Of a stretch of DNA of 64,000 bases, positions 9,925 to 39,771 are shown piece after piece (position 1 is the stretch's first letter; each line of letters starts with the position of its first letter). The stretch spans positions 70,089-134,088 of the forward strand of contig JASMKR010000031.1 in the NCBI GenBank assembly GCA_030749075.1. The letters are read 5' to 3'. The notes below the pieces were generated by a model. That model worked only from the letters and a program-made list of their open reading frames with translations, was not told the origin of the DNA and made no database searches. A program made the position numbers and the translations under genes. Origin of the DNA: Candidatus Thalassarchaeaceae archaeon (GTDB taxonomy: Archaea; Thermoplasmatota; Poseidoniia; Poseidoniales; Thalassarchaeaceae).

Positions 9925-11407
<1,483 letters not shown>

Positions 11408-21300: not shown

Positions 21301-24300
21301 CGGCACAGTGCGATACTCCCAAGACGACAAGCAGGATATCGGAATCATAGTGCCAGCCGCGAGTCTCACTGAGGTAGTTTTCCAATGGGATGGATTCACT
21401 CTTTCTACCACAACGGACGCAGACGGCAACTTCAGCGTGATTCTCCCTGTGGATGCGGTTGTGGATGCCACCGTCGAAATTCTCATGGGCGTCGATGGAT
21501 TCTCTTCCAATGGTACACGCTTCAAAGTGACCCGGGGAATGGACGATGTTTCTCTGAACATTGTTTCGGGTGCCATGGCAACCGGCTCTGTGAGCCTGAA
21601 CCGACTTGGGAACCACTACACTGATGCAATCAAGGGCTGGGAAGCCGTCCATGTCGTCGCCACCAATACTGACGGGTCCACAAACGGGGTTTGGAGGGAT
21701 GAGGCCGATTCCAACGGCTACTTCGAGATGATACTACCTCTGGGTAACTGGACATTCGTTCTTGACCCCGGTCAAATGGGCTCTAGCACGGAGACTAGGG
21801 AAATCAACTCATCCACCGTAATAGATCTAGAGCTTCTAGTCTACCCGGAAGGGAACAGCACGGTCGTAATCGACCTCTTTATCGATCACGATAGAGACAA
21901 CAACGCCTCCAATGGGACGGCGGTGACATATCCTTTCGCCGTCCAGTCGTTGGAGGCCAACGGCGCTGGATACGAAGTGGTCGCAGATGGCGATGAATGG
22001 ATTTCCTCCGGAAGGGCCGAGATTTCTCTGGAACCAGGCAGGTACAGGGTTGTCGTAGAAAGGGCAAATGCCTCGGCAGACGAGCCCTTCGACACTCTCT
22101 ATGACCTCAACGAGGTGTTCCAAGTAGGCATGACTCCATCGGCTGTCGAGAGGTCTGTGGGATTCGAGCCCCTGTGGCTCGTAAACATCACCTTCAGCAA
22201 CGAGAGCGGCAGTCTCCTAGTCGACCACGAGGTCGTTTTCGTCGATAGCGAAAACGGATGGATCCAAACTTTCCTCACCGACGAGGAAGGCAGAGTAGTG
22301 GAATATCTGTCAGAAGGTGACTGGATAGTTATCGTCGACGAGTTCGAGACCAACTCAGACGTTTTCGAAGGACTGCGTCGCCTCATTAGCGTGTCCCAAG
22401 CCAGTGCGGGGGCCCGGTTATATTTCCAGACCTCCGAGCTGGCCGAAGTCTCGATTGCCCTCTTCGAGGATTTTTCTGGTTCCAGTCTCAACCAAATGGA
22501 ACTCAGGTTCACCTCCCAGGAAGGGTTGGGTTCATTCACTGCGCAGACCTCAGGCTTCTTGGAGACCATAAAGATCAGACCGACACCGGGAATGTGGAAC
22601 GTAGAACTTAACCAGTCTGACAACCAAGGAGTGAGATGGGTCATCGATAATTCCTCCCTAGTCGAATCAGGAGTCTCCGTCGGCGTCGAACACATTGTCA
22701 ATCTGACTGTTCGGAGGCTCGTAGAGATGAGCGGCAAGGTCTACTGGGACCTCGATGACGACGGGCTGCCAGGATTCGGAGAGGGTCTAGTCAACGTCTC
22801 GGTGAGCATTACTTCCAACGATACCACCAACCATTCTTTGACCACTGATGATGGTGGCGATTGGGCAATCTACCTCCCAGCCGGCAGTTCATGGAGCGTC
22901 TCGGTAGAAAAGCCAGGATTCGCCAACGAATCAGTTTCCGTCACCCTAGGATCTTCCCGCCATGTCGAGAATATCGTGATTTCCGCTGGGTCAGTCGAGG
23001 TTTCCGGCACCGTCTCGTACATTTCGGATGAATGGATATTTGATGATGATTGGGAAATCGTGCTGATTCCCGCGCATGGGATTTCTAGGGAGAGGGTCGT
23101 TCCAGACAAGGTTGGCAACGAAGTGGATGGGTGGACAGGCGAGTGGGTTGCCTCGGTGGAACCCGGGCGATGGATTGCCTACGTCACGGTCGATTCCCTA
23201 GAGGGGGAGTCCTACCTAATCGCTGTGGATATGCTCGATGCCGATACCGATGGTGGTTCGGTAGATTCAGATCTCTCGATTGGCGGCAAACTCTTCCTTG
23301 ACACCGAGTGGCTGGACTATGACGGTGGACTGCACTCCCTTTCAGAGATCGATGACTACGATCTAGTGATTTCAATCGGAATGGGGATGGAATGGTCCGA
23401 GCAACTGGGTGAGGATGGCACCCTAGAGATGCTACTGCCCACCGGGAGAATCGACGCATCGAGTGACTTCGAGATCGAGCAACGGGCTAGGAATATGTCA
23501 TACTCGGGCGGTCAAGGCGTTACAATGAAGGCCGGCCAGGACAGTCCACTAAAGACACTGAGCTTGGAACGGGTTTCGAAGCAGAACATCGAAATTTCAA
23601 CGATCGGGGAAAGTACCGTCACATTGGGACTGGATCCCGAATGCGAAGTCGAGCTACTACCTCCACCACATGACTGCGAATACACACCCGTCGAATTCTC
23701 ATTGCGCATCGACTACTTAGGACACAGTTCCTTCGACTCATACGACGTTGTGGGCACCGTCCTCGGGACTGATGGCATCCTTTGGCTTGTGCAGTTTGAG
23801 AACGACTCCGGGGGCTGGAACAGCACCGCCTCATTCGAGATGGGAATCGATAACGCTGAGACGATTGACAGCTTAGTTGTCAGGGTGAGTCCAGCAAACA
23901 AGAGCCAGGCCCACCATTTCGGACTTGGACACACTATTCTGATGAAGTTCAAGACTGCCGAGGGTTATTCCACCGAGCACAGTCTGACCGTGAAGGTCCC
24001 CAGATTCTCCGGATTCGAAGTAACCGAGGAATTCGTCGACACAGTCTACTTCAGTTCAGGGGATAAATTTCTGGAAATAGAGATTCCATTTCAAAATCTG
24101 GGGAACGCCGACGACCTACTGACTTTCGACTATCAATCTACTGAACACTGGAACGTGGGCATGCCAACGCTGCAACCAATCTCGCCATTCTCGGAGGGAA
24201 TTACGACTATGTCACTCTCCTACGCAGTCGAGGAGGAACATCTTCCCGAGTACGCGATTGACTTCACTGTGTCCGATGCAGAAAACAACTCCTACGACTA

Positions 24301-24826: not shown

Positions 24827-24867
24827 TTGGGCGATATGGGCGATGACTCCCAGCAACACGGTGGTCG

Positions 24868-26106
24868 GTGATGCAGGACATAGAACACCTCGAACTGATG
24901 CCCGAACCAGATGAGCCAAGCCTGCTTACAACGGTCGACAGCGATGCCCCCGGATATCCCGGTAAGTCCTATGGGGTCTCGGATGAGGAGGCTAGGGAGA
25001 TGCGCTGGCCCGCTGGCCCGATCATGGAGGTGCTATGGCCGTGGGGGGCGATTGTGTTTTCCTTGACAATCGTTTTCCTATTGCTGTCTTGGAACTTGAT
25101 ATCTCCCTTCTTAGGACACGTTCTACCCGATTCTGAGTGGGCATACGAGGACACCGGAATCAGGGAACTGCAGAGTTCAGGAAGATTGGGGAGCGGAGTA
25201 AGCGTGTGCATTGTGGATACGGGAATCGACATATCGCACCCTGACCTCTCCAATGTCCACCTAGCAGGTTTCAGGGACTTCTACGGCGACGATCATGATA
25301 GTGTCAGGGATATCGGGAACGAGGGTCACGGTACGCTAATGGCCGGGCTCCTCGTTGCAAACGGCACCTTTGTGGGCGCCGCTCCCGAGGTCTCCCTCTC
25401 AATCGCAATCGCTCTGGGGCCTACCGGAAAGTCGACCGATGAGCGAATGGTTTCCCAGGCAATCCGTTGGTGCCGAATCTCTCAGCAGGCCGATATCATC
25501 TCACTAAGCCTAGGCAGCGAGCCTGGTTCGGGGATGGGCTTCGAATCCGATACCGTTGGGGCCGTTAAGGAAGCCCTAGAGGAAGGGGTCTTCGTCGTCG
25601 CTGCTGCGGGGAATACGAACTCGATCACTGGTGACTCTGACGTTTCGACCCCTGCAAGCATCGAGGGTGTCATCGCGGTTGGGGCACATAGTAGGAACGA
25701 GGCTGTCTGGAAGGATAGCGCTATTGGAGCTGCAACCGACCCATATTCCGGCGAGAACCGAACGTTTCCAAATCAGAAGCCCGAGATCTCTGCCCCCGGC
25801 GTTCTCCTATGGTCTTGCGTTTCCAGCGAAAACGATCCTCCATACGCTTACTCGACTGGAACCAGCGACTCCACGGTCTTGGTCACCGGTGCTCTAGCAC
25901 TCATTTTGGAGGAACACCGACAGATTATCGCCGGGCAGAACGACAGGATTGACCCCGAAGAGATAGCCCTGGTCAAGGTCGCTTTGGCCAAGTCAGCCCA
26001 AAAGACCCCCTCGCAACAGGGTTCTCATGACCCTAAGATTGGTTATGGCCTACTAGATGCTAAGGCATGGTCCGACCAAGTGGCACTGGAGTTCAATTCT
26101 ATTTGA
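24868..26106 (+). CDS. Subtilisin-like serine protease (peptidase S8) with N-terminal TM/signal anchor
   Basis: The Asp motif is VCIVDTGID, the His motif is HGTLMAGL and the Ser region is YSTGTSDSTVLVTGALALI. An N-terminal hydrophobic helix WGAIVFSLTIVFLLL is present. Confidence 0.75.
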   Translation: MMQDIEHLELMPEPDEPSLLTTVDSDAPGYPGKSYGVSDEEAREMRWPAGPIMEVLWPWGAIVFSLTIVFLLLSWNLISPFLGHVLPDSEWAYEDTGIRELQSSGRLGSGVSVCIVDTGIDISHPDLSNVHLAGFRDFYGDDHDSVRDIGNEGHGTLMAGLLVANGTFVGAAPEVSLSIAIALGPTGKSTDERMVSQAIRWCRISQQADIISLSLGSEPGSGMGFESDTVGAVKEALEEGVFVVAAAGNTNSITGDSDVSTPASIEGVIAVGAHSRNEAVWKDSAIGAATDPYSGENRTFPNQKPEISAPGVLLWSCVSSENDPPYAYSTGTSDSTVLVTGALALILEEHRQIIAGQNDRIDPEEIALVKVALAKSAQKTPSQQGSHDPKIGYGLLDAKAWSDQVALEFNSI

Positions 26107-26148
26107 GACCACAAGGGCTCGATACTACCCTACGGTTAAATCGCTCTG

Positions 26149-29100
26149 ATGGGGCCCGGAGCCATGGCGCGCAGTGGAAAGGCCGGTTCCATTGCCCTCG
26201 CTGCTCTCTTCCTGACCAGCGTCCTACTAGCACTAGTGCTACCGGCCAATCCTGTAAGAGCGTCCAACGAGACCACCTCCGGTACCATCACAGGTACGGA
26301 GACTTGGGCTGGAACGCACGTCCTAACTGGAGATGTGACCGTCGCCCCAGGTGCTAAGCTTATCATCCAAGCGGGAGCCACGATTACCTTTCCCAATGGG
26401 ACGTATCTCGACGTGCGTGGTAGCCTATGCGCGGGGGTAGCCTCTTGCGGCAGCAGCAGCAATGCCGACCCTTCGATGAAGATCACCCTCAGGTGGGAAG
26501 AGCCCCTCAACGCCAGTGCCATTGGGGAGTGCTATGGCATGTCCGAAGGCAATCAGGAAATCTGGATTGACGACCCCTCGTGCAACGAGGGGTTGCTGAT
26601 GAGAAGCAGCATTGACCTATCGGAGACGGGAATGAGGTACGTCACTTTCGACGGTCCTTGGGGAGTCCCATACTATGTCACTGCGGTCAGCGAGTTCCGT
26701 TACGCGGCCCTAGTCCTAGATGGTGCTAGCCCGACCCTGACCAACCTCGAGTTCATTGACGTCAACTCTAGCAGCGTCCTAACCACGGACCTCGCTCAGC
26801 CCACTTTCAACGGTGGCACATTCGTAGTAGGCAATGATGCCAGCAGAAGCATTGTGGGCCCCGCCCTGCAGATTTACTCCTCGGGGTCCTCAATCACTCC
26901 CTTCACCCTCAGCGATATCACACTCTCCAGTACCAACAACGGCTGTGGGAACCGGGACCGCGGCCGCGCCGCCATATGGGCGGAGAAGTCATTCATAGAG
27001 ATCAACAATGCCGAAATCACCGATGGCGACTTCGGCTTCAGCCTCAGGACCTCTGCGGGCAGCGTCACCAACTCCACTGCAAGCGTCAACTGCAATGGCA
27101 TCGACATCAACGGCAAGAAGTCCGTAGGCTCTGTCTACTATGACTTCGAAATTTCGAACAACGTCATCACGACCGTCCAAGGCAGTGGAATCACGCTTTA
27201 CAGCGGTGCTCTGGCCACGTTGACCAACAACGACATCGAAGGCGCCTCTCAAGCCTCCGGCATCACCGTTTATTCCAGCACTGCGGCCCTCCACAACAAT
27301 GAGATTGGCCCGATTGGGGGGTACAACGGACTCTGGCTGCGCGGCTCCTTCGACGTTGAAGCGGAGAATAACACCATCTTCGATACCGGAAGGGAGCCAA
27401 TCGTAGCGGGAAGGTACACCCGGTCTGAGTACTCGGCATCCCGTATCTTCCTAGCTAACAACACCATCTCAACGAAGGGGACCGGCGCGTGCAGCAGCAA
27501 CACATACTGGGCCGGCGACTTCACATGCCCGGCCATTCATGCCTTTGTTACCGGTGTGACGATGTACGACAACGTCGTCAACGTCGATTCCGAAGGCACC
27601 GCCGATGGCATCAGAGCCATCGGCTCGCTGTTGGACATCCAGAGGAACGTCTTCAACGTCCCCAAGTCAGGCGCCATTGTCAAGAACTTCGACAGCGGTT
27701 ACTCCGAAGCCGATCAATACGGCACCCTCGGCTTCTTCTCACAGAACACGTGGAACGGTGTCGAAACGACGTACAACGTCACCAAGAGCTCAATCACTGT
27801 TCAGTCCGAGTACATTCCAAGCCCCCCTTCCGGAGAGTTCCCCGTTCTCCTTGATTGGCCAGACCAGGAGGCATGGCCCGCAAACGGCTTCCAAGGCTCC
27901 ATCATACCCACTCCGGTCAAGAACTGCGCAAACTGCGACAACATGACCCCGCACAACTTCCCCCTCGCGATAAACATGGACAACAACTCCACCGTTTTCA
28001 CCTTCGCCAACCTGTCAAATCTGGACCTCTCCAAGGTCAAGATAGAAACCCAACCCACACATTTTGCGGTTCAGGTCAGCAGGGCTGAGTTGGTCAGGTT
28101 CCAGACGCTGATTAAGGGTGAGAGGGTCGGCGATGCCTTGCTCATTGTCGAGGACGCCTTAGGGAACGACCTCTACTCCATCAAAACCCATTCCGATGGA
28201 TTCACCCCGTGGATTTCTCTTCCCTCCAATTTCCACCTTGACTTCAGGGGGCTTGGTGGTGGTGATAATCCCGATGGCTTCGCGGATGACGAGTACGAGG
28301 ACTCTTGCTCCGATGGTATCGACAACGATGGCGATCTTACCACCGATACAAACGACAACGATTGCAACTATTCTGCAGGTACAAGGGAGATGTCCCTCTA
28401 CAGGTACACCGCCTATAGGTTCGGTTTCGGTTACTACCGCGGAGAGTTCACTCTCGCAGACAGTTCCTACCAAGAGACCGTCAGCCTCGAAAACCTCGCT
28501 CCGACGGTTACTGTGACCCAAGACAATGATCACTCCTATCGCAGGATTGTCAACATCACAGGCAGTGCTCACGATGGCCAACTGGCGAACAGTTACGCTA
28601 CCGACCAATTGGCTCAGTGGGACCAGCGTGGTTACGTCCACTCTATCCAGATCAAGGATCCGTTTACTAACAGCTGGGAGGATGCCGGTAATGCAATAGA
28701 CACCGGTGGAGCCGGGGAGGGGCATGTCACTAGGTTCAACCGGCCTTTCAGCTCCTGGTACTATGCCCTCGACATGAGTAGCATTGCTGGCGAGGGCGAT
28801 TATACCTTCGAGTTTCGTGCCTTCGATGGAATCGATTACAGCCCAACAGTCTCCAAGACCTTCAAGCTCAACACACAACCTCCTACGGTTTTCGTAACCT
28901 CGCCAAGCTCGTATTCATCGCATGACGGGGGAACGGTGAATTTCATCGGAACAGCTCAGGATCCATATGGCTGCCCCTCGGAGTGTAACAAGGACGTCGG
29001 ACTGATATATTTCCAGATCGAGGGCCCGAACTTCCAAGTAACGACTCCAGTCCAATCCAACGATGATGGCAGTTGGGAGTGGGAATGGGACTTCAGCGGC

Positions 29101-30486
29101 CAACCCCGGGATCTCGCCACCTTCACATTTACCGTTTGGGCATCCGACTCCGATTTCTGCGATGGCATCATTGACGAATGCCTGCCGGTGGTTCTGACAC
29201 TGAGCATAGACAACTCCAACAGCCAACCAACCATCAGCGTCAACCAGCCACAGGCGGGCACTCGAATCTCAGTTTCCGAGAGTACGCTGCTTAGCGGTGT
29301 GGCGAGGGACTTCGACGGCGAAGTAACAAGGGTGGATGTGGAGGTCAAGGATGTCTCTAACGACTACATTACCGTACACCTCGCCTCCACTCACGATTTC
29401 ACGTCCGAGGGTGAATGGGAAATCGAGTGGGACACCACCCAACTTCGCCATGATGCCGACTACCTGATCAGGCTCAGATCCTATGATGGAATGGACTTCA
29501 GCAGCTGGGTCGAGGTGGGGATTATCGCCGATAACCCACCCGATGCCGGTAACAACCAGCCTCAGTTCAATCCCAGCGAATGGGTAAGCGAGATCACACT
29601 TTTCTGTGATACTGAGTCAAGCTCTGCCAACAGGTGCACCACGATCGAGATGGACCTGATGGAATTCTTCAGCGACGCTGACGGGGACATACAGTTCATC
29701 TCAGTGTTCAACGACACCTCTGATCCCGCCGACGACAACTATGCCATCGTGATAAACGTCGCAGGTGATGGTATGGCATACTACAACCCAGCGGATATGT
29801 TCTTCTACGATCCAGACATAAGCTCTTGGACACTAAACGACGTAATTTTCATTGCTACTGATTCGCATAACTCTAAGGTCAACTCACTTCCTATTTCCTT
29901 CACAGTCATACCCATTCAGTTTTCGATAGATTCCCCCGAGGAGGCTTGGGTCGAGTTGGATGGGATTTCGGTGTATTCTGGCGTCGGCCTTCCGGGGAAG
30001 CAGGTCACCGTGCTAATCGGCGGGATTACCGTCAACAATACCATAGTGGCCGATAATGGAACTTGGGTACTCGGCATACCGGCATCAAGAATCCAGGGTG
30101 ACTCCGCAACCCCCCAGTTTAGCTATAGTGGCGAATTTACCCCCGGAGATCCAATTCAACTAGGGCAACCAGAAGAAGAGGGGTCGAACTGGAACAGGAT
30201 TGCTCTGGTAGGTGTGCTAGTATTCGCACTGCTGGGTGCCCTAGCCTACTTTATATTCGAAATCGAGGATGATGATGATGAGTACGGGAAGTCACCTGTG
30301 GCCCCATTAGTAGAGCCCGATGAGCCCGACGACCCCTATGCTTGGGCCAAGGTCGACGCCCCTATTCCTCCTACAACAGTTGATCGGGGTCAGCAATTGG
30401 AGCGGCACGAGGAACACCCAGGATGGTTGTGGGACCCCATCAGGGAGGAATGGGCCCCAGATCCTGAATACCATGACTCCGAATAA
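26149..30486 (+). CDS. Large (1,445-aa) surface protein with right-handed parallel beta-helix repeats, Ca-binding-like D-rich segment and C-terminal TM anchor plus acidic cytoplasmic tail
   Basis: Signal peptide is MARSGKAGSIALAALFLTSVLLALVLPANPVRA. Repeated motifs N..I....GSGITLYS / GASQASGITVYSS are pectate-lyase-like PbH1 repeats. DGIDNDGDLTTDTNDNDCNYS is present. The C-terminus is IALVGVLVFALLGALAYFIF followed by EIEDDDDEY. Confidence 0.7.
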   Translation: MGPGAMARSGKAGSIALAALFLTSVLLALVLPANPVRASNETTSGTITGTETWAGTHVLTGDVTVAPGAKLIIQAGATITFPNGTYLDVRGSLCAGVASCGSSSNADPSMKITLRWEEPLNASAIGECYGMSEGNQEIWIDDPSCNEGLLMRSSIDLSETGMRYVTFDGPWGVPYYVTAVSEFRYAALVLDGASPTLTNLEFIDVNSSSVLTTDLAQPTFNGGTFVVGNDASRSIVGPALQIYSSGSSITPFTLSDITLSSTNNGCGNRDRGRAAIWAEKSFIEINNAEITDGDFGFSLRTSAGSVTNSTASVNCNGIDINGKKSVGSVYYDFEISNNVITTVQGSGITLYSGALATLTNNDIEGASQASGITVYSSTAALHNNEIGPIGGYNGLWLRGSFDVEAENNTIFDTGREPIVAGRYTRSEYSASRIFLANNTISTKGTGACSSNTYWAGDFTCPAIHAFVTGVTMYDNVVNVDSEGTADGIRAIGSLLDIQRNVFNVPKSGAIVKNFDSGYSEADQYGTLGFFSQNTWNGVETTYNVTKSSITVQSEYIPSPPSGEFPVLLDWPDQEAWPANGFQGSIIPTPVKNCANCDNMTPHNFPLAINMDNNSTVFTFANLSNLDLSKVKIETQPTHFAVQVSRAELVRFQTLIKGERVGDALLIVEDALGNDLYSIKTHSDGFTPWISLPSNFHLDFRGLGGGDNPDGFADDEYEDSCSDGIDNDGDLTTDTNDNDCNYSAGTREMSLYRYTAYRFGFGYYRGEFTLADSSYQETVSLENLAPTVTVTQDNDHSYRRIVNITGSAHDGQLANSYATDQLAQWDQRGYVHSIQIKDPFTNSWEDAGNAIDTGGAGEGHVTRFNRPFSSWYYALDMSSIAGEGDYTFEFRAFDGIDYSPTVSKTFKLNTQPPTVFVTSPSSYSSHDGGTVNFIGTAQDPYGCPSECNKDVGLIYFQIEGPNFQVTTPVQSNDDGSWEWEWDFSGQPRDLATFTFTVWASDSDFCDGIIDECLPVVLTLSIDNSNSQPTISVNQPQAGTRISVSESTLLSGVARDFDGEVTRVDVEVKDVSNDYITVHLASTHDFTSEGEWEIEWDTTQLRHDADYLIRLRSYDGMDFSSWVEVGIIADNPPDAGNNQPQFNPSEWVSEITLFCDTESSSANRCTTIEMDLMEFFSDADGDIQFISVFNDTSDPADDNYAIVINVAGDGMAYYNPADMFFYDPDISSWTLNDVIFIATDSHNSKVNSLPISFTVIPIQFSIDSPEEAWVELDGISVYSGVGLPGKQVTVLIGGITVNNTIVADNGTWVLGIPASRIQGDSATPQFSYSGEFTPGDPIQLGQPEEEGSNWNRIALVGVLVFALLGALAYFIFEIEDDDDEYGKSPVAPLVEPDEPDDPYAWAKVDAPIPPTTVDRGQQLERHEEHPGWLWDPIREEWAPDPEYHDSE

Positions 30487-30537
30487 TCCGCCCGACTCCT
30501 ACCAACATTATTGAGTGGAGATTGGGGCTGAGGAACC

Positions 30538-33069
30538 GTGGCCACGATTTCTGCGTCCCGCCCCGGGGTCCAAGAGCGAATCTTCCTGCATCTTCGTGAC
30601 TATATGGATCACAGTGACAAGGTAGAAGTCCCATTCGCACTTTCGCAGATGGGAATTGCAAACTCCGTGGCAATCGCTCGATCCAACGTTCCCAGAGCAA
30701 TCTCCGGGATGAAAGAGTCCGGCCATCTCATCGAGCGTCAAGCTCACGTCACCGGAGTCTCTAGGAAACGCAAGGCATACTTTCTCACCGAAGATGGCGC
30801 TAATGTCGCCGATGAGATTTGGACAAAGGTATCCGAGCATCCGGTCAGGCTCGTACACCCCGACGGTCGATCCGAATCCACCTCCCTCTCTGAGGCAGTA
30901 GAGGGGACCGACCTGCCTCTTCGCCATGTCGACCTGCTACGCTACATGGATGACTCGGGCACGATAGACCTCTCAGGACTCACACCTGATCTAATTCAGA
31001 GGGATCTCTCCAAACACATCGAAAAACAACTCATTTCCTACCTCAACGACCTACCCCGAACCCGTCGGTTCTACGGGAGGGCGAAGGAACTCGATGTCAT
31101 GGCAGAACTACTGGATTCCAAATCCGGCTCGATCCTTCTTCCCGGGATTGCAGGAATCGGGAAGACTTCCCTATCGACGAAAATATTGGACCGATTCACG
31201 CATCGACGAAACCTCCTGTACCACAGATGTCAGGACTGGGAGGGGTCACGTGCATTTCTCGAGGGATGTGCTGAGTGGCTCGCAGCGATAGGCCACAACG
31301 ACCTCTCCGACTATCTTGCCTCCACTCCCGTTCCCCAACCAACCATGACAGTGAATCTAATCGAATCAGGACTCTCTGAATCTCCTTCTTTGATTGTCAT
31401 TGATGACCTCCACAAGATGGGTGACGAGACTCTGTACACCATTCTTCGTGAGCTCACCTTGAGAATCCCCAATCTGAAGGAAGTCGGCCTAGTGATGTTC
31501 TCTCGTTCATTCCGGATGGTCGTCCCCGAATCCGACAGAACTGGGAAGATCGTTACACTAGTGATGCCTCTTCAGGGATTGGACGAGGATTCCAGCAAGC
31601 AGATTCTGACGGCGATGCCCGGGTTGAATCAAGAGCAGTTCTCCAATATTTACTCCTTGTCCCGGGGGCACCCCCTAATTCTTGAGCTCATAAACAGGGG
31701 GAATGTCGCTGATACCTTCCATGCGACTCTGGAGGCATTCGTGGAACAGGAAATCTTCAGCCGCCTCTCAGGTGCTGAAAAGCGCCTTCTCGGTGCAATT
31801 GCTGTGTTTCGTGAACCCATTCCTATTCATGCAGTCAAGCAAGTCGAAGGGGGTACTGACCTGCTCGATGAACTGGTAGAAAAAGGGCTAGCCCGCCAAT
31901 CTGATGCGGAAAACTACGATGTCCACGATCTCGTTAGAGAGTTCCTTATGCGCTCGATGGACGATGAACTGAGGAAGGAACTGCATTCTACTGCTGTGGG
32001 TTGGTATAGGGATAAGTATGACAATGCCGCCTATAGAATTGAGTTCATTCATCACCTTCGGTATACCGGGGACGATGATGGCCTAGCCGAAGTACTGCTT
32101 TCAGAGGGTCACCGCCTTGTTAGGGCCGGCCATACCGAGCTTCTCTCAATATTGAACACCCTCGATAGGAATGACTTCGACACAAAGAGCTGGGGACTGA
32201 TAAGGGAACTTAGGGGGGACATCCTCTCTATTCAGGGGAGATGGGATGAAGCAGAGATTGAATACGACGCTGCAACAAGACAAGTCGGAAGAAAAATCAG
32301 TCCCGAACTCGCCCGCCTACTATCTGCTAGAGCCGACATTGCAGTAAAACGAGGAGCAATGGATGACGCGCTTGAACTTCACCGCAAGGCCCTCCAGATA
32401 CAAACCCACAAAGACATTCGTGATGCGGTTGGAGCAGCGCGCTCATACAATAATATGGGATACATCTACAGGAGAAGGAAGGATGTAAGACGCGCGCTCG
32501 AGGTTTATGGCAATGTCGAGGATATGCTGAAACTCGAGGATGATCCCGAACTCAACGAGGCTAGAATCAGACTAGCTTCCGCCTTCATCGAGATGGGGGA
32601 ATTGGACAGGGCCAGAGAGCATGCCCTTGCGTCCTTCGACAATACCAAGGACATCAATCAGGATTTCCTTCACGCACGCTCGAGAGCAGTCCTCGGCAGA
32701 TTCTATGCCAAGATTTCTGACAACGAGCTTGCACTCCACCACTACTCTGGTGCTTTGGAAACTCTCTCTCACCTCGATGACCCAAGAAGCGCGGTGGAGA
32801 TCGAGATGCTGCTAGGGCAGGTATTAGTTGATGCTGGTAGGGGCGGGGAGGCCGGCGAACATTACCTCAACGGTCTTGCAGTGGCCGAGGCAAACGACTT
32901 CAGAATGCTACAGGGCGAGTTACTAGCTCGCCTCGGAGAGGTTGAGGCCGATCGTTCGCAGCGAATGAACTACCTACAGCGCTCGCTTTCCCTATTCAGG
33001 GAACTGGGGGCCGTGGAAAGGATGAAGGAGGTCCAGAACTCAGTTCACCGGGCGGTAATGGGGAAGTAG
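30538..33069 (+). CDS. STAND-class P-loop NTPase with N-terminal winged-HTH and C-terminal TPR repeats (AfsR/SARP-like regulator architecture)
   Basis: The N-terminal ~100 aa is wHTH-like (ALSQMGIANSVAIARSNVPRAISGMKESGHLIERQ). Walker A is LLPGIAGIGKTSL (nt ~31141-31170) and Walker B is LIVIDDLH. LVMFSRSF and GHPLILELI are the NB-ARC sensor-1 and GxP motifs. The C-terminal ~300 aa has TPR-like repeats (SYNNMGYIYRRRKDVRRALEVY etc). Confidence 0.65.
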   Translation: MATISASRPGVQERIFLHLRDYMDHSDKVEVPFALSQMGIANSVAIARSNVPRAISGMKESGHLIERQAHVTGVSRKRKAYFLTEDGANVADEIWTKVSEHPVRLVHPDGRSESTSLSEAVEGTDLPLRHVDLLRYMDDSGTIDLSGLTPDLIQRDLSKHIEKQLISYLNDLPRTRRFYGRAKELDVMAELLDSKSGSILLPGIAGIGKTSLSTKILDRFTHRRNLLYHRCQDWEGSRAFLEGCAEWLAAIGHNDLSDYLASTPVPQPTMTVNLIESGLSESPSLIVIDDLHKMGDETLYTILRELTLRIPNLKEVGLVMFSRSFRMVVPESDRTGKIVTLVMPLQGLDEDSSKQILTAMPGLNQEQFSNIYSLSRGHPLILELINRGNVADTFHATLEAFVEQEIFSRLSGAEKRLLGAIAVFREPIPIHAVKQVEGGTDLLDELVEKGLARQSDAENYDVHDLVREFLMRSMDDELRKELHSTAVGWYRDKYDNAAYRIEFIHHLRYTGDDDGLAEVLLSEGHRLVRAGHTELLSILNTLDRNDFDTKSWGLIRELRGDILSIQGRWDEAEIEYDAATRQVGRKISPELARLLSARADIAVKRGAMDDALELHRKALQIQTHKDIRDAVGAARSYNNMGYIYRRRKDVRRALEVYGNVEDMLKLEDDPELNEARIRLASAFIEMGELDRAREHALASFDNTKDINQDFLHARSRAVLGRFYAKISDNELALHHYSGALETLSHLDDPRSAVEIEMLLGQVLVDAGRGGEAGEHYLNGLAVAEANDFRMLQGELLARLGEVEADRSQRMNYLQRSLSLFRELGAVERMKEVQNSVHRAVMGK

Positions 33070-33876
33070 TCAGGCCGCCACGAATCGCCGTGGTTCCGCT
33101 TGCCCAGTCCAATGGCTGAACTCCGGCCCACGCTGTTTTGAGACTGAAATGTCGCCTGAGAATGTATCGCCAATGGCCATCAGAACCTCGCTCTCTGCCA
33201 AATGGGGGGCATTGTTATTCTCAGAAAGGTGACAGAGGACGATGCTATCCAACTCAGGGTGACACACGTTTCCCAATAGTTCGGCAGTTTGGGAATTAGA
33301 AAGGTGCCCACCTCGCCCCGAAATCCTTCGTTTGAGAGAATCTGGATATGGCCCTTGGATGAGCTTGGAGTGGTCGTAATTCGCTTCGATTGAGATGTGG
33401 TTGCAGCCACGAAGATGCTTCGCCAATTCAGCAGTGGACTCTCCGAGGTCCGTCACTATAGCAGCCCGTCCTCCATTTCCATCGCTGCCGATTACGGCGA
33501 CGTTTTCGGCATCGTCATGAGGAACTGGAACTGTTATCAGACTGAGTCCGGTGGCACACTCTACCCTCTCAAGATTGCCGAACGTCCTACAGTCCTCTAG
33601 AGGGTGCCAACCCAATTTCATTGCAGTTTCTAGATTACAGTGGAGTTTGGCGTCCCATGCCCTTGAGGCTTTGAGGGCTGAGTTGGAGTGGTCCCTGTGA
33701 TGGTGCGTCACGAGAATGGCGTCAATTGAATCCGGTGCGACTCCAATCAATGACAGCCTCTTCTCAGTTTGCCTGAGACTAAATCCACAATCTATCAAGG
33801 CCCTCGAGTCCCCGGAGCTTAGTAGGGTTGCGTTGCCTTTACTGCCCGAACCCAGATGAGTAATCTCGATGCTCAT
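33070..33876 (-). CDS. MBL-fold metallo-hydrolase (metallo-beta-lactamase superfamily)
   Basis: LVTHHHRDH is the HxHxDH motif. The N-terminal HLGSGSKGNATLL is typical of the MBL fold. Downstream His/Asp ligands are present. It is convergent with and abuts the STAND gene. Confidence 0.7.
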   Translation of the reverse strand: MSIEITHLGSGSKGNATLLSSGDSRALIDCGFSLRQTEKRLSLIGVAPDSIDAILVTHHHRDHSNSALKASRAWDAKLHCNLETAMKLGWHPLEDCRTFGNLERVECATGLSLITVPVPHDDAENVAVIGSDGNGGRAAIVTDLGESTAELAKHLRGCNHISIEANYDHSKLIQGPYPDSLKRRISGRGGHLSNSQTAELLGNVCHPELDSIVLCHLSENNNAPHLAESEVLMAIGDTFSGDISVSKQRGPEFSHWTGQAEPRRFVAA

Positions 33877-34053
33877 AATGTCATTCTCTCATCCACAGCA
33901 CCCTTTGAACCAATCCATTATCTTGCCTCAATCACACGCTATTCCAAGACCATGGTGGTTAGCCGCCACCCCATTCTAGCCATCTATGTCCGAACGGCGC
34001 TCCATCACCATGATAAATCACTCAAGTAGGGAAAATGGTACCGAGTGGGTAAC

Positions 34054-37000
34054 ATGCGGCGCAAGCAGACTGCCCTGCTATTCTCCTTCCTGATATTATC
34101 TAGCCTCGCCTTCGTCTCTCAAACACGCCCACAGTCTCCGGTGTCTTCGACCGATCCGAACCTCGCAGAAGGCAGCGAGTCCCCTGTCACTGACCAGGAC
34201 GGAGACCTAATCCCCGATCTCTACGAAGTCATTTTCGGTGATGACTACTTGTTGGAGACTGCGAATGTAGAGATGACCATCAATGGACTCGACCCCTCAG
34301 ATGCCACCGATAACCTCACCGATAACGACGGAGATGGGCTCACCGCCCTGCAGGAGTACTGTTGGCCCTACACCATTGACAGATGTTTCGAAGAGAGGAA
34401 CAGTCTTACTGGTAAGGCACCCGAGGAGACCGTGTCTGGCCTGAGGGAATACCTCGATCCCAGAGTTTCCGATACCGATGGTGATGGCCTTCCTGACGGC
34501 TACGAAGTATATATGTGCACAATTGGAGGCCTTTTCAAGAACAACCCAAACGACCCATTGAACTCGAAGAAGATTTGGGAATGCCAATTCTTCGACCCTC
34601 TCGACCCCAGCGATCTAATTGAGGACTTCGATCGGTGTGAGGCTGACTTCAGTTGGGGATGCGGCGATGGATTCGACTTCAACGGCGACGGAACTATCGA
34701 CATTGGCGAGAGATTCACAAACGCCGAAGAGTACCTCTTTGGCACTCCTCAAGAATGGATAACGGAGCGGGATGGACTTTGGTGCTATGGACAAATCTCT
34801 GGCCTGTCTGAAGATGCTTGTCAGACACAATACGACAGACCCACTTCTAATCATGGTTGGATGGGTACTGACCCTCGATTCGCCGATTCGGACTATTATT
34901 CATGGGACGAGGTCGTGGCCGTCGAGCTCATAGTTCCCGGGGATGGAATTCCTGATGGTTGGGAGGCTCACCACGGCCTGGACCCTCGGAATGCCAGCGA
35001 TTCCGTACTCGATAGCGACTCCGATGGATGGGATGGAAATAGGGATGGCTTCATTACTCCGGATGTAACTACGTCAACGGCCCACTGGGGAGAGTCATTC
35101 AGTAACTATGAGGAATATTCCATCGACTTCGATGAGGCATCCGGGGTCAGGCCAGGCCTCAGGGGGACCAAGGTTTCTTCGGAGCAGGGGCAGGTTCTAA
35201 ACTTCGATCACTCGACTGCAATAAGCCTCTTCGATCCTGCTGTCCACTCCGTGATTGCTGACCAACCGAGGGACCGCCTCATTGTCGGTTCGAGATACGG
35301 AATAACGGCCATAGATCCGTTTAGGGGAACAACCTCCAACTTCGAGTTCCAGCCAGGGATTGAGGGATTGACGATGAGTCGCTATACGATTGGTGACTCG
35401 GACTACCTCTTACTCGGAACAAATGTGGGATTTCACACCTTCCGGATGGAGAACGGCCTCCCTATGATGGACTCAATGAAAACTCAAGAGATAGGCCCCG
35501 TTTCTACCATAATTCCCCTAAAGACCAATTCTGTTGATCTTGACCTCCTACTTTTCGGGGGCTCGAGTGCATGGAAGGCCAAGTTGGCAGTGGGGTTCGA
35601 GTCCAACTCCTCTAGTTTCGAACCCCTTCCCCTCGTTGAGCTTTCCACAATGCTCTCTCACTCCAATGCCTCAGTTACCACGGCCGCGCATGTGGAGATG
35701 TCTGGAAGAGGCCCGCTTCTCTTCATAGGTACGGATGTTGGATTACTGGGTTGGAACACTACTGATGGGTCGAACTCGGTCGGCCAACCCTGGTGGATTT
35801 TCGACATTATGAACGCAGAATATTTCGTCAATACCAATCTCTTTGACTCCACCAATGCTGCTCGGGTAAACACCATTGTGATTGGCGATGGGATCGAGGG
35901 AGAGAGCGATGTCTGGATGGGGACAAGTGGGGGTCTGCATCGGATAAACATGAACCTGATAATATCTCAACCTACAGAGGCATTCGATAATGGAAGGATG
36001 CTCAATATCGATGGCCTGCTGTCTGGAGCAAACGACGTCCATGCAATTCTTCCACTAGATGGGATGGTTGCAGTGGGGTCAAAGGATGGCACTTGGTGCC
36101 TAGAGGGGGGATCCTCGGGGATAATAGGTCCTTTTCTTAACCAAACAGAGATTCCCGGGCTCGTAACTTCAATGGTCACTTTGGACAAAGAGGGGGAGGA
36201 GTGGCTCTTCGCTGGCATCTCCCCTGGCAGATACATGAACATAGCATCCATGAACCCTCACTCTGCTGACTCTGACTTGGATGGGATGCCCGATGGGTGG
36301 GAGTTCGCTTACGGCCTAGATCCAACAGACCCCTATGACAGCCTAAGGGATCCGGACGTCGATGGAGTTTCGATTTCTTGGAGTGACGATGGGTATTACA
36401 CGAGGCAATGGAGCAACTTGGATGAGTATAGATTCATTTCAGCCACAATGGACGGATTCAACGGTACCGACCCCCGACACTCTGACTCTGATGGAGATGG
36501 TTTGAGTGATGGAGAGGAGTATTGGGGGTGGTTCTTTGACTCGACCTCATTTGAATGCCATTACCTCAACGGGGCCTATATGTGCGATCCCAACACTGGG
36601 GAGTCAGCAAGGGAGGTCCATTTGGGTGGATGGCTAGGCTCGGGGTCAGGCGGCGGTAGCGATGGACCCACTGACCCAACCAATCCAGATTCGGATGGGG
36701 ACGGAATGCCCGATGGTTGGGAGATTCGCCATAGGAGGTGGTTGGGGGATGTCTATACCGGCGGAAACAATTGGACCCTAGACCCTAGGGACCCCTCGGA
36801 TGCTATGCAGGACGCCGACGGTGACGGACTCAGCAATATCTGCGAGTACGAGTGGGCAAGACTTCACAATCAAGTCATGACATTGGGTCTGGATACTCAC
36901 GGTGAATCGAAGGAATCGGCAGCAAACTGGTTCAGTACCGATCCTAATTCAGTGGATTCCGATCACGACTCCCTCCCAGATGGCTGGGAGGCCCGCTACT

Positions 37001-39771
37001 CGTGCCACTGGCCATCTGAAAATGCCGGAATCAACCCGATGAACGGCTCTGATTTTCTGAACAATCCCGACGGTGACGGTTACGACTCCAATCATGACGG
37101 AACACTGGAATTGGAAGAATCTCTCGTCAATTGGCTCGAATACCATCTCAAATCGAAAATCCTCCTGCATAATGGTACTTCATCCGGTGAAAATTATCCA
37201 GGTAATCTGACTTCAGTCTTGCCCCACGAGTCATGGGATGGACTAGCGCCAGGTTCCTTTGGCGAGTACATTGGAAGCTACTATGAATCGTTGAATGCTG
37301 CCCTGCCGATTGATGACATAGGCACATCTGACCCTCTTCGCGCTGATTCGGACAGGGACGGGATGCCGGATGGATGGGAAGTCTACAATGCCCGATGGAG
37401 CCTCTTTGAGCAAGACTGGACGCTCAACCCCGTGAATAGCGATGACAGGCTAGGTGACCCAGACGGTGACGGAATGAACAACTGGGAGGAGTACAACGCC
37501 ATCGACGGCCAGTTGAGTGAAAGCGATGGAACTATTTCTGTACCCCAGTTTTACCTATCTGATGCAGCGGGGGCACTCTTGGAGACTCCCTGGATTGGGG
37601 CCGAATCGTCTCTGTCGTTTGGATCATTCGTCACAGAAGAGCAGAGAAACTCGACGGGATTAACTGCCGATCCAAACAACCCTGACTCAGATGGTGATGG
37701 ATTGCTTGACGGTGTCGAGTTGATTTTCACCATGTGGAACTCAACCGACAGCGTCTGGACACTCAATCCATTGGTTCCAAACGATGGGTTCTATGACTCC
37801 GACGGCGACGGTATCCGTGATTCGACTGAACTGAACCTTACTGCCAATGGTCCGGTCAATGGTGACCTTTCTCCTCCCGATGCCCCATTGTTCTGGGAGG
37901 AGGCAGATCAATTGAATCACTTAGATTCCGTGAACCGAATTTTTAGAATATTATTCAAGAAGGAAGGCAGGGCTGAGCTGGCGATGAATCAATTCTACGA
38001 TTGGCAGGAGGGACACTCTGCCAAGCCTCTTCTTTCCTCAATAATTGGAATCACCGATCCAAACGAAGTCGACACCGATCGTGATGGGATGAGCGATGGG
38101 TATGAGTATTGGTTCACCGGCTGGGATCTTGAAAACAATCGTTGGAACATGAATCCCCTGAGTGATACCGATTCAGGTTATGACTCCGACGAAGATTCCT
38201 ACGACTGCAACGAAGATGGGGAGATTTCCGATTCTGAATCCTTCGACAACCTTGCTGAGTATGACTCCAGATGGTACGGAAAGAGGCTGGCCATAGGCAG
38301 CATGCCAAACGGCACAGGAGTGGTGTCCTATGGCTCGGATGCTGTAACCGCTCAAATAGAGGAAAATGGGCTTTCGATGGAAGCTGCGTGGGGGCAACTT
38401 TACCTGCAGTTCGCCACGAAGAGCCTGTCTTCTTCAGAGAAGATGGGCCTGATCAATTCTTTCAACCCTGACAACTTCAACCATACCCTAATTGGAATTA
38501 GCGACCCAACCGACGCAGACTCCGACAGGGATGGTATGCCCGACGGCTGGGAGTTCTGCTACTCCCTATATGCCGAGGTACTCCCAGTCAATGCCTTCCG
38601 CTGGTCGTTGAACCCGATTAATCCCCTCGATGTAGACTACGACCCCGATGCCGACGGTTGGTTCGACAGGATGATTGGGGACAATCCAGCTGAGCAAGGG
38701 ACGTGGGAGAATCGCGAGTTCTCGGCTTATGCGCCCAATCAGCAGATTTCAAACGGAGTCACTGCACTGTACTTCACAAATATCATGGAGTTCCACAATG
38801 GTACAAAACCACTCGATCCAGACTCAGATAGCGACGCAATGGCAATGATTCCAGTATTCCAAGACGGCATAATGACCGATTATGTCAGGGACATGAGCCT
38901 GTCCGATGGTCTTGAGATTTTCAAGTACGGTACAAACCCTCTCGATAATGACACAGACGGCGACATGATGCCAGACTTCTACGAGCACTACCGCGGATGG
39001 AATGAGACTAATGACAATTGGTCCTCTTTCTATAAAATCGAAGTGCAATGGCAGGAAGTCACTCCAAACAACTGGAAACCCGTGGACATCTCGAAGGGCT
39101 ACATCGCCAGACCCTCACTTGGCTGGACATGGTTCACTCACGATGCCACTGATCCATCTGACGCATCACAGGACGCGGATATGGATGGTGAATGGGCCTG
39201 TTCTGGCTCTTCCTGTACATATGAGCCGTACAATAACTTCCAAGAGTACTATGCTGTCGTTAATGCCACCCTATCCTCTCCCTCAGTTGTCCGCGCCTCC
39301 TCCCTATACGACTGCTCTGGGGACACCGTCGAGGAATGGTGGCAACTGAGGGAGACGCTGTTGGGCACTTGTTCTGGCTCCAACTCACTGTCATCCAATT
39401 ACTTGAGAATGAACAGAATCAACAATCAGGATTCACTCTACGCATTGATTATCGACGATAACGATGTTGACTACGAGATCGTCAACACGAGTGATGACAT
39501 CATCTTCGTCAATGGTGCTTGGACGGATGAATTTAATCGATTGGCAGGAGATAGATACCACCTGCCTAACGTCGGACTCGGAGAGAATCCCTATGGTTGG
39601 TGGTACCTGGATATCGACGGCGATCTCATTGCAGATGGGACCGACCCGACGAACTGGGACACCGATGGCGATTGGTTGAACGATTTCTTTGAGATAGATG
39701 ATGACCTATTGGATGGGGTGAGGGGAAACAGCGGTTCCCCCATCAGGTACGACGATCGCACTACCTCATGA
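34054..39771 (+). CDS. Giant (about 1,905-aa) secreted Ca-binding protein with ~22 thrombospondin-type-3-like DxDxDG..D..E repeats; no TM anchor
   Basis: Signal peptide is MRRKQTALLFSFLILSSLAFVSQTRP. Repeats include DTDGDGLPDGYE, DSDGDGMPDGWE, DSDRDGMPDGWE, DADGDGLSNICE and others spread over the whole protein. There is no C-terminal hydrophobic helix. The track ORF begins at a GTG at 34045. Confidence 0.75.
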   Translation: MRRKQTALLFSFLILSSLAFVSQTRPQSPVSSTDPNLAEGSESPVTDQDGDLIPDLYEVIFGDDYLLETANVEMTINGLDPSDATDNLTDNDGDGLTALQEYCWPYTIDRCFEERNSLTGKAPEETVSGLREYLDPRVSDTDGDGLPDGYEVYMCTIGGLFKNNPNDPLNSKKIWECQFFDPLDPSDLIEDFDRCEADFSWGCGDGFDFNGDGTIDIGERFTNAEEYLFGTPQEWITERDGLWCYGQISGLSEDACQTQYDRPTSNHGWMGTDPRFADSDYYSWDEVVAVELIVPGDGIPDGWEAHHGLDPRNASDSVLDSDSDGWDGNRDGFITPDVTTSTAHWGESFSNYEEYSIDFDEASGVRPGLRGTKVSSEQGQVLNFDHSTAISLFDPAVHSVIADQPRDRLIVGSRYGITAIDPFRGTTSNFEFQPGIEGLTMSRYTIGDSDYLLLGTNVGFHTFRMENGLPMMDSMKTQEIGPVSTIIPLKTNSVDLDLLLFGGSSAWKAKLAVGFESNSSSFEPLPLVELSTMLSHSNASVTTAAHVEMSGRGPLLFIGTDVGLLGWNTTDGSNSVGQPWWIFDIMNAEYFVNTNLFDSTNAARVNTIVIGDGIEGESDVWMGTSGGLHRINMNLIISQPTEAFDNGRMLNIDGLLSGANDVHAILPLDGMVAVGSKDGTWCLEGGSSGIIGPFLNQTEIPGLVTSMVTLDKEGEEWLFAGISPGRYMNIASMNPHSADSDLDGMPDGWEFAYGLDPTDPYDSLRDPDVDGVSISWSDDGYYTRQWSNLDEYRFISATMDGFNGTDPRHSDSDGDGLSDGEEYWGWFFDSTSFECHYLNGAYMCDPNTGESAREVHLGGWLGSGSGGGSDGPTDPTNPDSDGDGMPDGWEIRHRRWLGDVYTGGNNWTLDPRDPSDAMQDADGDGLSNICEYEWARLHNQVMTLGLDTHGESKESAANWFSTDPNSVDSDHDSLPDGWEARYSCHWPSENAGINPMNGSDFLNNPDGDGYDSNHDGTLELEESLVNWLEYHLKSKILLHNGTSSGENYPGNLTSVLPHESWDGLAPGSFGEYIGSYYESLNAALPIDDIGTSDPLRADSDRDGMPDGWEVYNARWSLFEQDWTLNPVNSDDRLGDPDGDGMNNWEEYNAIDGQLSESDGTISVPQFYLSDAAGALLETPWIGAESSLSFGSFVTEEQRNSTGLTADPNNPDSDGDGLLDGVELIFTMWNSTDSVWTLNPLVPNDGFYDSDGDGIRDSTELNLTANGPVNGDLSPPDAPLFWEEADQLNHLDSVNRIFRILFKKEGRAELAMNQFYDWQEGHSAKPLLSSIIGITDPNEVDTDRDGMSDGYEYWFTGWDLENNRWNMNPLSDTDSGYDSDEDSYDCNEDGEISDSESFDNLAEYDSRWYGKRLAIGSMPNGTGVVSYGSDAVTAQIEENGLSMEAAWGQLYLQFATKSLSSSEKMGLINSFNPDNFNHTLIGISDPTDADSDRDGMPDGWEFCYSLYAEVLPVNAFRWSLNPINPLDVDYDPDADGWFDRMIGDNPAEQGTWENREFSAYAPNQQISNGVTALYFTNIMEFHNGTKPLDPDSDSDAMAMIPVFQDGIMTDYVRDMSLSDGLEIFKYGTNPLDNDTDGDMMPDFYEHYRGWNETNDNWSSFYKIEVQWQEVTPNNWKPVDISKGYIARPSLGWTWFTHDATDPSDASQDADMDGEWACSGSSCTYEPYNNFQEYYAVVNATLSSPSVVRASSLYDCSGDTVEEWWQLRETLLGTCSGSNSLSSNYLRMNRINNQDSLYALIIDDNDVDYEIVNTSDDIIFVNGAWTDEFNRLAGDRYHLPNVGLGENPYGWWYLDIDGDLIADGTDPTNWDTDGDWLNDFFEIDDDLLDGVRGNSGSPIRYDDRTTS

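Follow-up and report, generated by a model that had tools for sequence, protein, structure and literature searches.

What is a protein for that carries a winged helix, a nucleotide-binding core and a repeat-type sensor on one archaeal polypeptide? The question is raised by an open reading frame (ORF) in a 64,000-nucleotide stretch of the genome of a Candidatus Thalassarchaeaceae archaeon (contig JASMKR010000031.1, positions 70,089 to 134,088; the whole stretch is called the window below, and positions are counted from its first letter). A preliminary description, made from the sequence alone, had presented the product as an AfsR/SARP-like ATPase of the STAND class (signal-transducing ATPases that have numerous domains) that could serve either as a ligand-gated transcription switch or as a defence-related sensor. 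Our analysis indicates that the gene product is probably a transcription factor gated by a signal and switched by a nucleotide, of the PH0952-like (MalT/APAF1-related) STAND class. This reading has its observed basis in the chain of domains, the invariant switch residues, the conservation of the gene throughout Poseidoniales and the winged helix being the most conserved domain of all. With the STAND core, the winged helix-turn-helix (wHTH) and the tetratricopeptide repeats (TPRs) confirmed, the transcription switch is the best-supported reading of the gene, and a ligand-gated, ATP-dependent transcription factor is its most likely function.

30538..33069, plus strand: whole gene of the wHTH-STAND-TPR regulator (ORF, identical database protein, AlphaFold model)

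The ORF comprises 843 codons plus a stop and starts with GTG. An in-frame stop lies two codons 5' of the GTG at 30538, which is therefore the first possible start, and no longer reading exists. A database protein of 843 residues, 100% identical and derived from a Ca. Thalassarchaeaceae (Marine Group II b, MGIIb) metagenome-assembled genome (MAG), is labelled merely "tetratricopeptide repeat protein"; the window contains no paralogue. AlphaFold models were made from family alignments and reached a predicted local distance difference test score (pLDDT) of 88 with a predicted template-modelling score (pTM) of 0.71 for the full-length protein, and a pLDDT of 88.4 for the N-terminal 171 residues. 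[quoted passage not shown] The parts of the NOD are located as follows.

31063..31572, plus strand: NBD, residues 176-345, five beta strands (AAA_16, model, alignment to the PH0952 NBD)
within 31063..31572, plus strand: pre-P-loop motif F.GR..EL
31144-31167, plus strand: Walker A motif GIAGIGKT, K209 invariant
31390-31413, plus strand: Walker B motif LIVIDDLH, D289 invariant
31498-31512, plus strand: FSRSF, containing the sensor-1 residue Arg323, invariant
31573..31707, plus strand: helical domain, residues 346-390 (model)
31666-31683, plus strand: GxP motif GHPLIL in the helical domain, G377, P379 and L380 invariant, aligned with FGHPLML of PH0952
31708..31959, plus strand: STAND-specific WHD, residues 391-474, helices and a hairpin (model)
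31921-31944, plus strand: MHD-like motif VHDLVREF, residues 462-469, H463 invariant, aligned with VHDMVREF of 6mfv

The motifs on which the STAND assignment had originally been based are all present, at residues 203-210 (GIAGIGKT), 285-292 (LIVIDDLH), 321-325 (FSRSF) and 377-382 (GHPLIL). They are not chance strings, since their key residues are invariant in a 40-sequence family alignment at ~25% identity; the invariant positions are G203, G206, G208, K209, D289, R323, G377, P379, L380 and H463. The residues expected to work the switch, namely Lys209 of the P-loop, Asp289 of Walker B, Arg323 of sensor-1, Pro379 of the GxP motif and His463 of the WHD, are thus intact here and invariant in the family.

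The nearest characterised relative is PH0952 of Pyrococcus horikoshii, a predicted transcription factor with an ArsR-like DNA-binding domain at its N-terminus, a NOD, an arm and a TPR sensor, the structure of which was solved without the N-terminal domain (PDB 6mfv; Lisa et al. 2019, NAR, PMC6468293). A single-sequence search of the PDB with phmmer returned 6mfv at E=3e-29 over residues 172-489, in an alignment that runs residue for residue through the P-loop, Walker B, GHPL and VHD(L/M)VREF; the corresponding PH0952 motifs are GIAGIGKTS, IIDDFHK, GHPLML and VHDMVREF. His463 falls on His382 in the WHD of PH0952 (His282 in the numbering of the 6mfv chain, which starts at PH0952 residue ~101), and this histidine contacts ADP (PMC6468293). 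Pfam placed AAA_16 on residues 177-306 with a score over the gathering score (E=3.9e-8), and AAA_22 matched too. A NOD profile made from 20 diverse family members was then run against the PDB. It matched PH0952 at E=1.4e-50 (175 bits), and its matches to the plant NLR Roq1 (1.7e-7, 34 bits) and to MalT (4.3e-5, 26 bits) extended over the entire NOD. Matches to NRC1 (4e-6, 29 bits), AfsR (8e-6, 28 bits) and APAF1 (4e-4, 23 bits) covered the N-terminal, P-loop-containing stretch only. Classical AAA+ proteins (Hsp104/Clp, RFC, RuvB and TnsC) were matched at the P-loop only, with E values of at least 1e-3, and bit scores for Clp, RFC and RuvB were at most 21. These scores agree with the proposal that the central domain is a STAND NOD.

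The structural comparison gave the same ranking. With the full-length model as query, Foldseek listed 6mfv_A first (E=1.2e-22, 689 columns, target TM-score (TMt) 0.65), in an alignment that covers the NOD, the arm and the TPRs; the next STAND protein was MalT (8bob, E=2.6e-10, TMt 0.68), and Avs3 and CED-4 came after MalT among the STAND proteins, with very poor superposition. An ordinary AAA+ ATPase of the Orc1/Cdc6 type, an initiator or clamp-loader-like protein that happens to carry TPRs, could in principle look similar, and Foldseek does list Cdc6/ORC at about 2-3e-6, while the NCBIfam Orc1/Cdc6 model (TIGR02928) gives a weak match (E=4.7e-5). The latter scores 22 bits against a cutoff of 181, however, and the structural matches are much weaker than the STAND ones, with a root-mean-square deviation (rmsd) of about 17 Å. 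No Orc1/Cdc6 chain occurs among the top 60 PDB matches of the NOD profile, the classical AAA+ matches are confined to the P-loop, and the protein carries the MHD-like His463 in a STAND-specific WHD as well as a GxP motif, both invariant. We therefore reject membership of the Orc1/Cdc6 AAA+ group and consider this origin of the protein extremely improbable. The clustering with ordinary AAA+ that had been named as the observation that would overturn the STAND assignment is seen neither in the profile scores nor in the Foldseek ranking. The core combines Walker A and B motifs on an AAA+-related NBD with a GxP-bearing helical domain and a WHD that has an MHD-type histidine, and by profile bit score, with the Foldseek ranking in agreement, it resembles STAND NODs more than classical AAA+. 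That the protein belongs to the STAND class is, in our judgement, close to certain.

If the NOD is the switch, the output should lie in the N-terminal domain, which precedes it as follows.

30565..30834, plus strand: N-terminal wHTH, residues 10-99, presumed DNA-binding effector (model, Foldseek, family profile, Pfam matches of relatives)

The model of this region (pLDDT about 95) comprises helix H1 (residues 11-20), H2 (37-44), the recognition helix H3 (50-60), a beta-hairpin wing (64-83) and H4 (85-99). Taken singly, the sequence gives a sub-threshold Pfam match to HTH_Crp_2 at residues 17-68 (E=0.001-0.002). When 31 family members were scanned one by one, HTH_Crp_2 was matched by 27 (best 7e-10), PadR by 13, MarR_2 by 12 and TrmB by 5, and an N-terminal profile of the same 31 members retrieved MarR, SlyA and MepR chains from the PDB (best E=6e-5), with alignments spanning H2, the recognition helix and the wing. 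The top Foldseek matches of the N-terminal model are all MarR-family regulators (ZitR, MepR, SlyA and AdcR), DNA complexes among them, over about 88 columns at an rmsd of 2-3 Å (prob 1.0, E about 2e-3). The wing holds a conserved basic run, R/K-R-R-K (SRKRKAYFLT here, RRRKVYFLT in the family consensus), and orthologues scarcely differ in the putative recognition helix. The winged HTH first read from the sequence, sub-threshold in the single protein, is thereby confirmed by the family profile and the structure model. Together, the family profile and the modelled fold point to a winged helix of the MarR/ArsR/PadR class, for which DNA binding is a reasonable prediction.

Between this head and the NOD lies a unit that helps to decide how far the comparison with AfsR holds.

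30835..30981, plus strand: module 2, residues 100-148, small beta-beta-alpha-alpha-beta unit between wHTH and NOD (AlphaFold)

Module 2 is modelled with a pLDDT of about 90, with its elements at residues 102-144, and it is found throughout the Thermoplasmatota family. A module 2 profile built from 31 sequences gave chance-level matches only when run against the PDB, the best being at E=0.047 (calmodulin, peroxiredoxin and designed proteins). Large SARPs of Streptomyces such as AfsR have the same order of units, that is, an N-terminal DNA-binding effector, NOD, arm and TPRs (PMC10936776), AfsR is likewise a transcription activator modulated by ATP, and its NOD is matched by the family profile at E=8e-6. 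One might therefore suppose that archaea acquired a true "large SARP" by transfer. What defines a SARP is an OmpR-type DNA-binding domain together with a BTA domain (PMC10936776), and AfsR carries both; Pfam detected neither Trans_reg_C/OmpR-type nor BTA/BTAD domains in our protein, and neither is among the 23 families matched by the 31 members. The wHTH is of MarR/PadR/Crp type by sequence and structure, and what follows it is, in the model, the 49-residue beta-beta-alpha-alpha-beta module and not an all-helical BTA domain. The similarity to the AfsR NOD is limited to profile positions 4-52, around the P-loop, and the bit scores of the NOD, 175 for PH0952 and 28 for AfsR, put it much nearer to the former. 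AfsR, moreover, is a bacterial protein whose contacts are with the sigma and beta subunits of the bacterial RNA polymerase (RNAP). Of the label "AfsR/SARP-like" the domain order therefore stands and the family does not: with both defining sub-domains absent, membership is refuted, and a transferred SARP has next to no chance of being the correct account.

The remainder of the protein corresponds to an arm and a sensor.

31960..32172, plus strand: arm (HD2), helical, residues 475-545 (model)
32173..33066, plus strand: TPR sensor, residues 546-843, seven helix pairs and a capping helix (Pfam, model)

Pfam matched TPR families here with significant scores (TPR_12 at 1.4e-13, TPR_1 at 2.3e-8, and TPR_2), together with a weak TPR_MalT match, and the helices are modelled at residues 549-841 with pLDDT above 90, so that the C-terminal array of TPRs seen in the sequence is now supported by modelled helix pairs. 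MalT, the activator of the maltose regulon of Escherichia coli, shares with our protein the NOD, the arm and a TPR-type sensor, and presumably also the mechanism, in which an autoinhibited ADP-bound monomer undergoes inducer-triggered, ATP-dependent multimerisation and binds promoters cooperatively. It differs in its DNA-binding domain, which is a C-terminal HTH of LuxR/GerE type as opposed to an N-terminal wHTH of MarR type, and in its partner, since our protein would serve the archaeal basal transcription machinery and MalT serves the sigma-70 RNAP. MalT (NF003420) is the best NCBIfam model, with 44 bits against a cutoff of 537; Pfam found no GerE match, and TPRs occupy the C-terminus up to the final residue. 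The protein is accordingly not a MalT equivalog.

PH0952 resembles our protein in the order and type of its domains, from the ArsR/MarR-class winged helix to the TPRs with their capping helix, and the NOD, arm and TPRs are homologous over their full length. Because the score gap between PH0952 and all other STAND proteins is very large, we infer that the protein falls in a PH0952-like clade. Overall identity is only about 19-30%, there are seven TPRs here and six in PH0952, and the hosts differ, one being a mesophilic marine planktonic archaeon and the other a hyperthermophile. PH0952 also appears to lack module 2, since its NOD starts about 63 residues earlier: residue 172 of our protein aligns with PH0952 residue ~109, which leaves about 63 more residues before the NOD here. 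As the protein has the same plan as PH0952, the wHTH-NOD-arm-TPR architecture was already known (PMC6468293) and is not new, a point that the preliminary description had overlooked.

How widely is this design kept? A HMMER pass with residues 1-500 over 1.84 billion cluster representatives returned 2172 proteins at E<=1e-3, of which 398 had E<=1e-30. Most are 750-1000 residues long, ~30% identical and co-linear from residue ~11 to ~495, which implies that wHTH, module 2, NOD and arm travel as a unit. Among species-representative genomes, orthologues (49-94% identity) are restricted to Poseidoniales, where Thalassarchaeaceae (MGIIb) and Poseidoniaceae (Marine Group IIa, MGIIa) both have them, and the gene is present once per genome among the loci kept; the relatives at ~30% identity belong to other Thermoplasmatota, namely Methanomassiliicoccales, Thermoplasmatales and unclassified Thermoplasmata. 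When MGIIa orthologues are compared with those of MGIIb, identity is highest in the wHTH (72%), about 50% in the TPRs, 37% in module 2 and lowest in the arm (31%). Labels given to relatives by the JGI pipeline include TPR protein, MarR-family regulator and MalT.

Two side observations concern these relatives. Contigs L040, L083 and L060 are assigned to bacterial MAGs (Rhodobiaceae, Salipiger and Leptospirales); L040 and L083 carry the regulator of Marine Group II (MGII) with the synteny described below, and L060 a Methanomassiliicoccales-type relative. All three most likely represent binning contamination in public MAGs. In the Methanomassiliicoccales loci L055-L079, 15 loci have a small protein of about 190-230 residues encoded divergently 5' of the STAND homologue, about 100-700 nt upstream of it, which may resemble DUF835. 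Genes for a heavy-metal P-type ATPase and for TrpB-like, RidA-like and HAD proteins lie near the homologue in these loci, a synteny unlike that of the MGII locus.

The genes around the regulator bear on the choice between regulation and defence.

15320-24826, plus strand: 3168-residue protein with an STT3 (oligosaccharyltransferase) domain
24868-26106, plus strand: S8 peptidase
26149-30486, plus strand: 1445-residue beta-helix/Big_7 protein with a signal sequence
33070-33876, minus strand: metallo-beta-lactamase (MBL)-fold hydrolase, convergent to the regulator with zero spacing
34045-39771, plus strand: 1908-residue protein with bacterial-type TSP3 repeats, divergent from the MBL gene

The regulator is the last of four co-directional genes spaced by 41-51 nt, the gaps between the first three (15320-30486) being 41-42 nt. 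The trio of S8 peptidase, beta-helix protein and regulator is kept in every Poseidoniales locus with enough flanking sequence. We also note that the genes of 15320-30486 and 34045-39771, which code for very large secreted or surface proteins, form a cluster conserved in Poseidoniales, and that an STT3 domain within a protein of >3000 residues is unusual. The MBL hydrolase does abut the regulator on the opposite strand, as had been pointed out (33070..33876), but it adjoins the regulator in MGIIb only; in MGIIa about 3.8 kb with three inserted minus-strand genes separates the two, and we dropped the hydrolase as a conserved partner or target. Its fold is a generic MBL fold, and its matches to known families (RNase Z, beta-CASP and Apyc1) are confined to the HxHxDH region and all lie far below the cutoffs. 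The MGIIa insert, which has no equivalent in the window, encodes proteins of 158, 736 and 361 residues on the minus strand (L026 8021-11786), and their N-termini resemble archaeal class-III (type IV pilin-like) signal peptides.

A defence role would make the protein an Avs-like antiviral STAND, whose TPRs sense a viral protein and whose oligomerisation triggers a DNA-directed response through the DNA-binding effector. Avs and NB-ARC/NLR proteins do share with it the STAND NOD (Walker A/B, sensor-1 Arg, GxP and MHD-type His) and a C-terminal repeat sensor, STAND plus TPR being the general Avs plan; the NOD profile is matched from end to end by Roq1 (E=1.7e-7), Avs3 (8dgc) is among the Foldseek matches (E=1.7e-9), and the product of the convergent MBL gene has a weak match, at E=0.0033 and far short of the cutoff, to the Apyc1 family of anti-Pycsar proteins. 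The Avs3 superposition, with a TMt of 0.09 and an rmsd of 33 Å, nevertheless reflects generic shared folds only, and the MBL neighbour is generic as well. Avs and NLR effectors are nuclease, protease, TIR or CC domains, whereas the putative effector here is a plain MarR-type wHTH without a nuclease, protease, TIR or similar domain. A PADLOC scan gave nothing significant, the best match being PDC-S73 at E=0.0074. The gene is core and syntenic, at a fixed position in MGIIa and MGIIb and once per genome among the loci kept, which is the opposite of a variable island such as those that bear Avs genes. The gene keeps its chromosomal place within a cluster of cell-surface genes, which is no defence island; the defence proposal is left unsupported, we reject membership of the Avs or anti-phage STANDs, and an antiviral function is very unlikely.

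Is the regulator transcribed from its own promoter, and is there a site at which it might act? Two conserved non-coding blocks are relevant.

30504..30517, plus strand: promoter-like block AACATTATTGAGTG, 21-34 nt 5' of the GTG (conserved across MGIIb loci)
33987-34019, no strand assigned: ultra-conserved non-coding element of ~33 nt, TGTCCGAACGGCGCTCCATCACCATGATAAATC, within the divergent MBL/TSP3 spacer of 168 nt

The block AACATTATTGAGTG is kept across MGIIb orthologous loci while the remaining spacer drifts. It occurs once in the window, and near-matches with as many as 3 mismatches are about as frequent as expected by chance. A TAT(T/A)GA(A/G)..GG-like element recurs about 22-40 nt before start codons (for example those at 10013, 40700, 47298, 42295, 33876(-) and 30538), and may be the TATA/promoter consensus of Poseidoniales, with short or absent leaders. 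Because AACATTATTGAGTG resembles elements that lie equally far upstream of other genes in the window, the regulator probably has a promoter of its own, with AACATTATTGAGTG probably serving as its TATA-like element and a leader that is short or absent. As a specific operator the block was rejected and read as a promoter, given its single copy, the chance-level near-matches and its resemblance to the elements of other genes.

The second element lies in the ultra-conserved divergent promoter region that the MBL and TSP3 genes share. TGTCCGAACGGCGCTCCATCACCATGATAAATC is nearly invariant in MGIIb loci, where the rest of the spacer is unalignable, and its 20-nt core GTCCGAACNNCGCTCCATCA is exact in 22 Poseidoniales loci. 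These include MGIIa, although the flanking proteins are only 40-55% identical there, so that the core is better conserved than the proteins on either side. A metagenome-wide scan for exact copies of the core placed 112 of 120 matches at the MBL/TSP3 position, the other 8 being chance matches within coding sequences of unrelated organisms, and the window contains 1 copy where 0.04 would be expected by chance. A dispersed regulon motif was rejected on this distribution; a known RNA was rejected too, with no Rfam match even at E<=10. The 3' part, GATAAAT, lies about 36-42 nt before a conserved ATG at 34054 that follows a conserved GGTG. This is the expected position of a TATA box for the TSP3 gene, and the element probably combines a TATA box with an operator, for which the ~22 nt upstream of GATAAAT are the candidate. 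A tiny minus-strand ORF (MVMERRSD...) is a possible alternative reading of 33987-34019. The element is a candidate site for this protein because the regulator is its neighbour and has a very conserved wHTH; that the regulator actually binds it is a tentative and rather doubtful proposal.

Several points weigh against a transcription factor or against the details given here. We know of no experiment showing DNA binding, ligand binding or control of a regulon for any member of the clade, PH0952 included, and the role in transcription is a predicted one. The HTH match of the protein itself falls below the Pfam threshold, and the Foldseek E values of the N-terminal domain are modest, at about 2e-3 with none at or below 1e-3, despite a prob of 1.0. 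The extra module between wHTH and NOD has no explanation. The relatives at ~30% identity, in Methanomassiliicoccales and elsewhere, share no neighbours with the MGII locus and have a local synteny of their own, and the link between regulator and 33987-34019 is one of adjacency, the two being about 4.8 kb apart in MGIIa. Since winged helices can serve as protein-interaction modules, the protein might instead be a STAND/TPR scaffold or signalling hub, whose winged helix contacts proteins, for example the machinery of surface-protein biogenesis, and not DNA. Its place in a tight co-directional cluster of genes for secreted or surface proteins would suit such a role, as would the puzzle of module 2 and the clade's record on DNA binding. 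Against it, the wHTH matches bona fide DNA-binding domains of the MarR family, DNA-bound structures included (MepR-DNA and ZitR-DNA), the wing has its basic run, the putative recognition helix hardly varies, and PH0952 was read as a transcription factor by the group that solved it (PMC6468293). We regard a protein-binding scaffold as unlikely and retain the DNA-binding regulator.

How would such a regulator work? For STAND proteins with TPR sensors a "double autoinhibition" model has been proposed, in which contacts of both the arm and the sensor with the NBD keep the ADP-bound NOD closed until an inducer frees them, ADP is swapped for ATP and the protein multimerises (PMC6468293). By analogy with MalT and PH0952 (PMC6468293), the resting protein would be a monomer with ADP bound, kept in the closed state by contacts of the NBD with the arm and with the TPRs. 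A ligand, whether a small molecule or a peptide or protein, would dock on the TPRs or the arm and free the NOD, which would open and exchange ADP for ATP. ATP-bound protomers would then assemble head to tail, and the clustered N-terminal winged helices would bind repeated sites at target promoters and alter transcription. The best candidate for the regulon is the flanking cell-surface cluster, with the S8 peptidase, the beta-helix protein and the TSP3-repeat protein.

A bolder version of this reading, which we hold to be possible but doubtful, makes the regulator the master switch of a Poseidoniales cell-surface cluster for adhesion or particle attachment, acting via the element at 33987-34019. 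The cluster would comprise the STT3-containing protein of 3168 residues, the S8 peptidase, the beta-helix protein of 1445 residues and the TSP3 protein of 1908 residues, plus the pilin-like genes in MGIIa. The TPRs would sense a cue from the environment or the cell envelope, and the clade-specific module 2 would couple DNA binding to the opening of the NOD.

As a type of protein the regulator adds little, its architecture and probable mechanism having already been set out for PH0952 and MalT, and the finding is a very well-conserved further member of a described STAND design. Its interest lies in the organism. Few planktonic archaea are as abundant as those of Marine Group II, which are uncultured, and to our knowledge almost nothing is known of their gene regulation. 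The regulator looks near-universal in Poseidoniales and unites on one chain a sensor (TPR), a switch driven by ATP (NOD) and an output domain (wHTH). If it were indeed the master switch, the regulator and its operator would be the first such pair, and its cue the first sensory input, in the surface remodelling of these uncultured archaea. A conserved cluster of giant surface proteins, with a conserved promoter element next door to the regulator, offers a concrete and testable entry to gene regulation in MGII.

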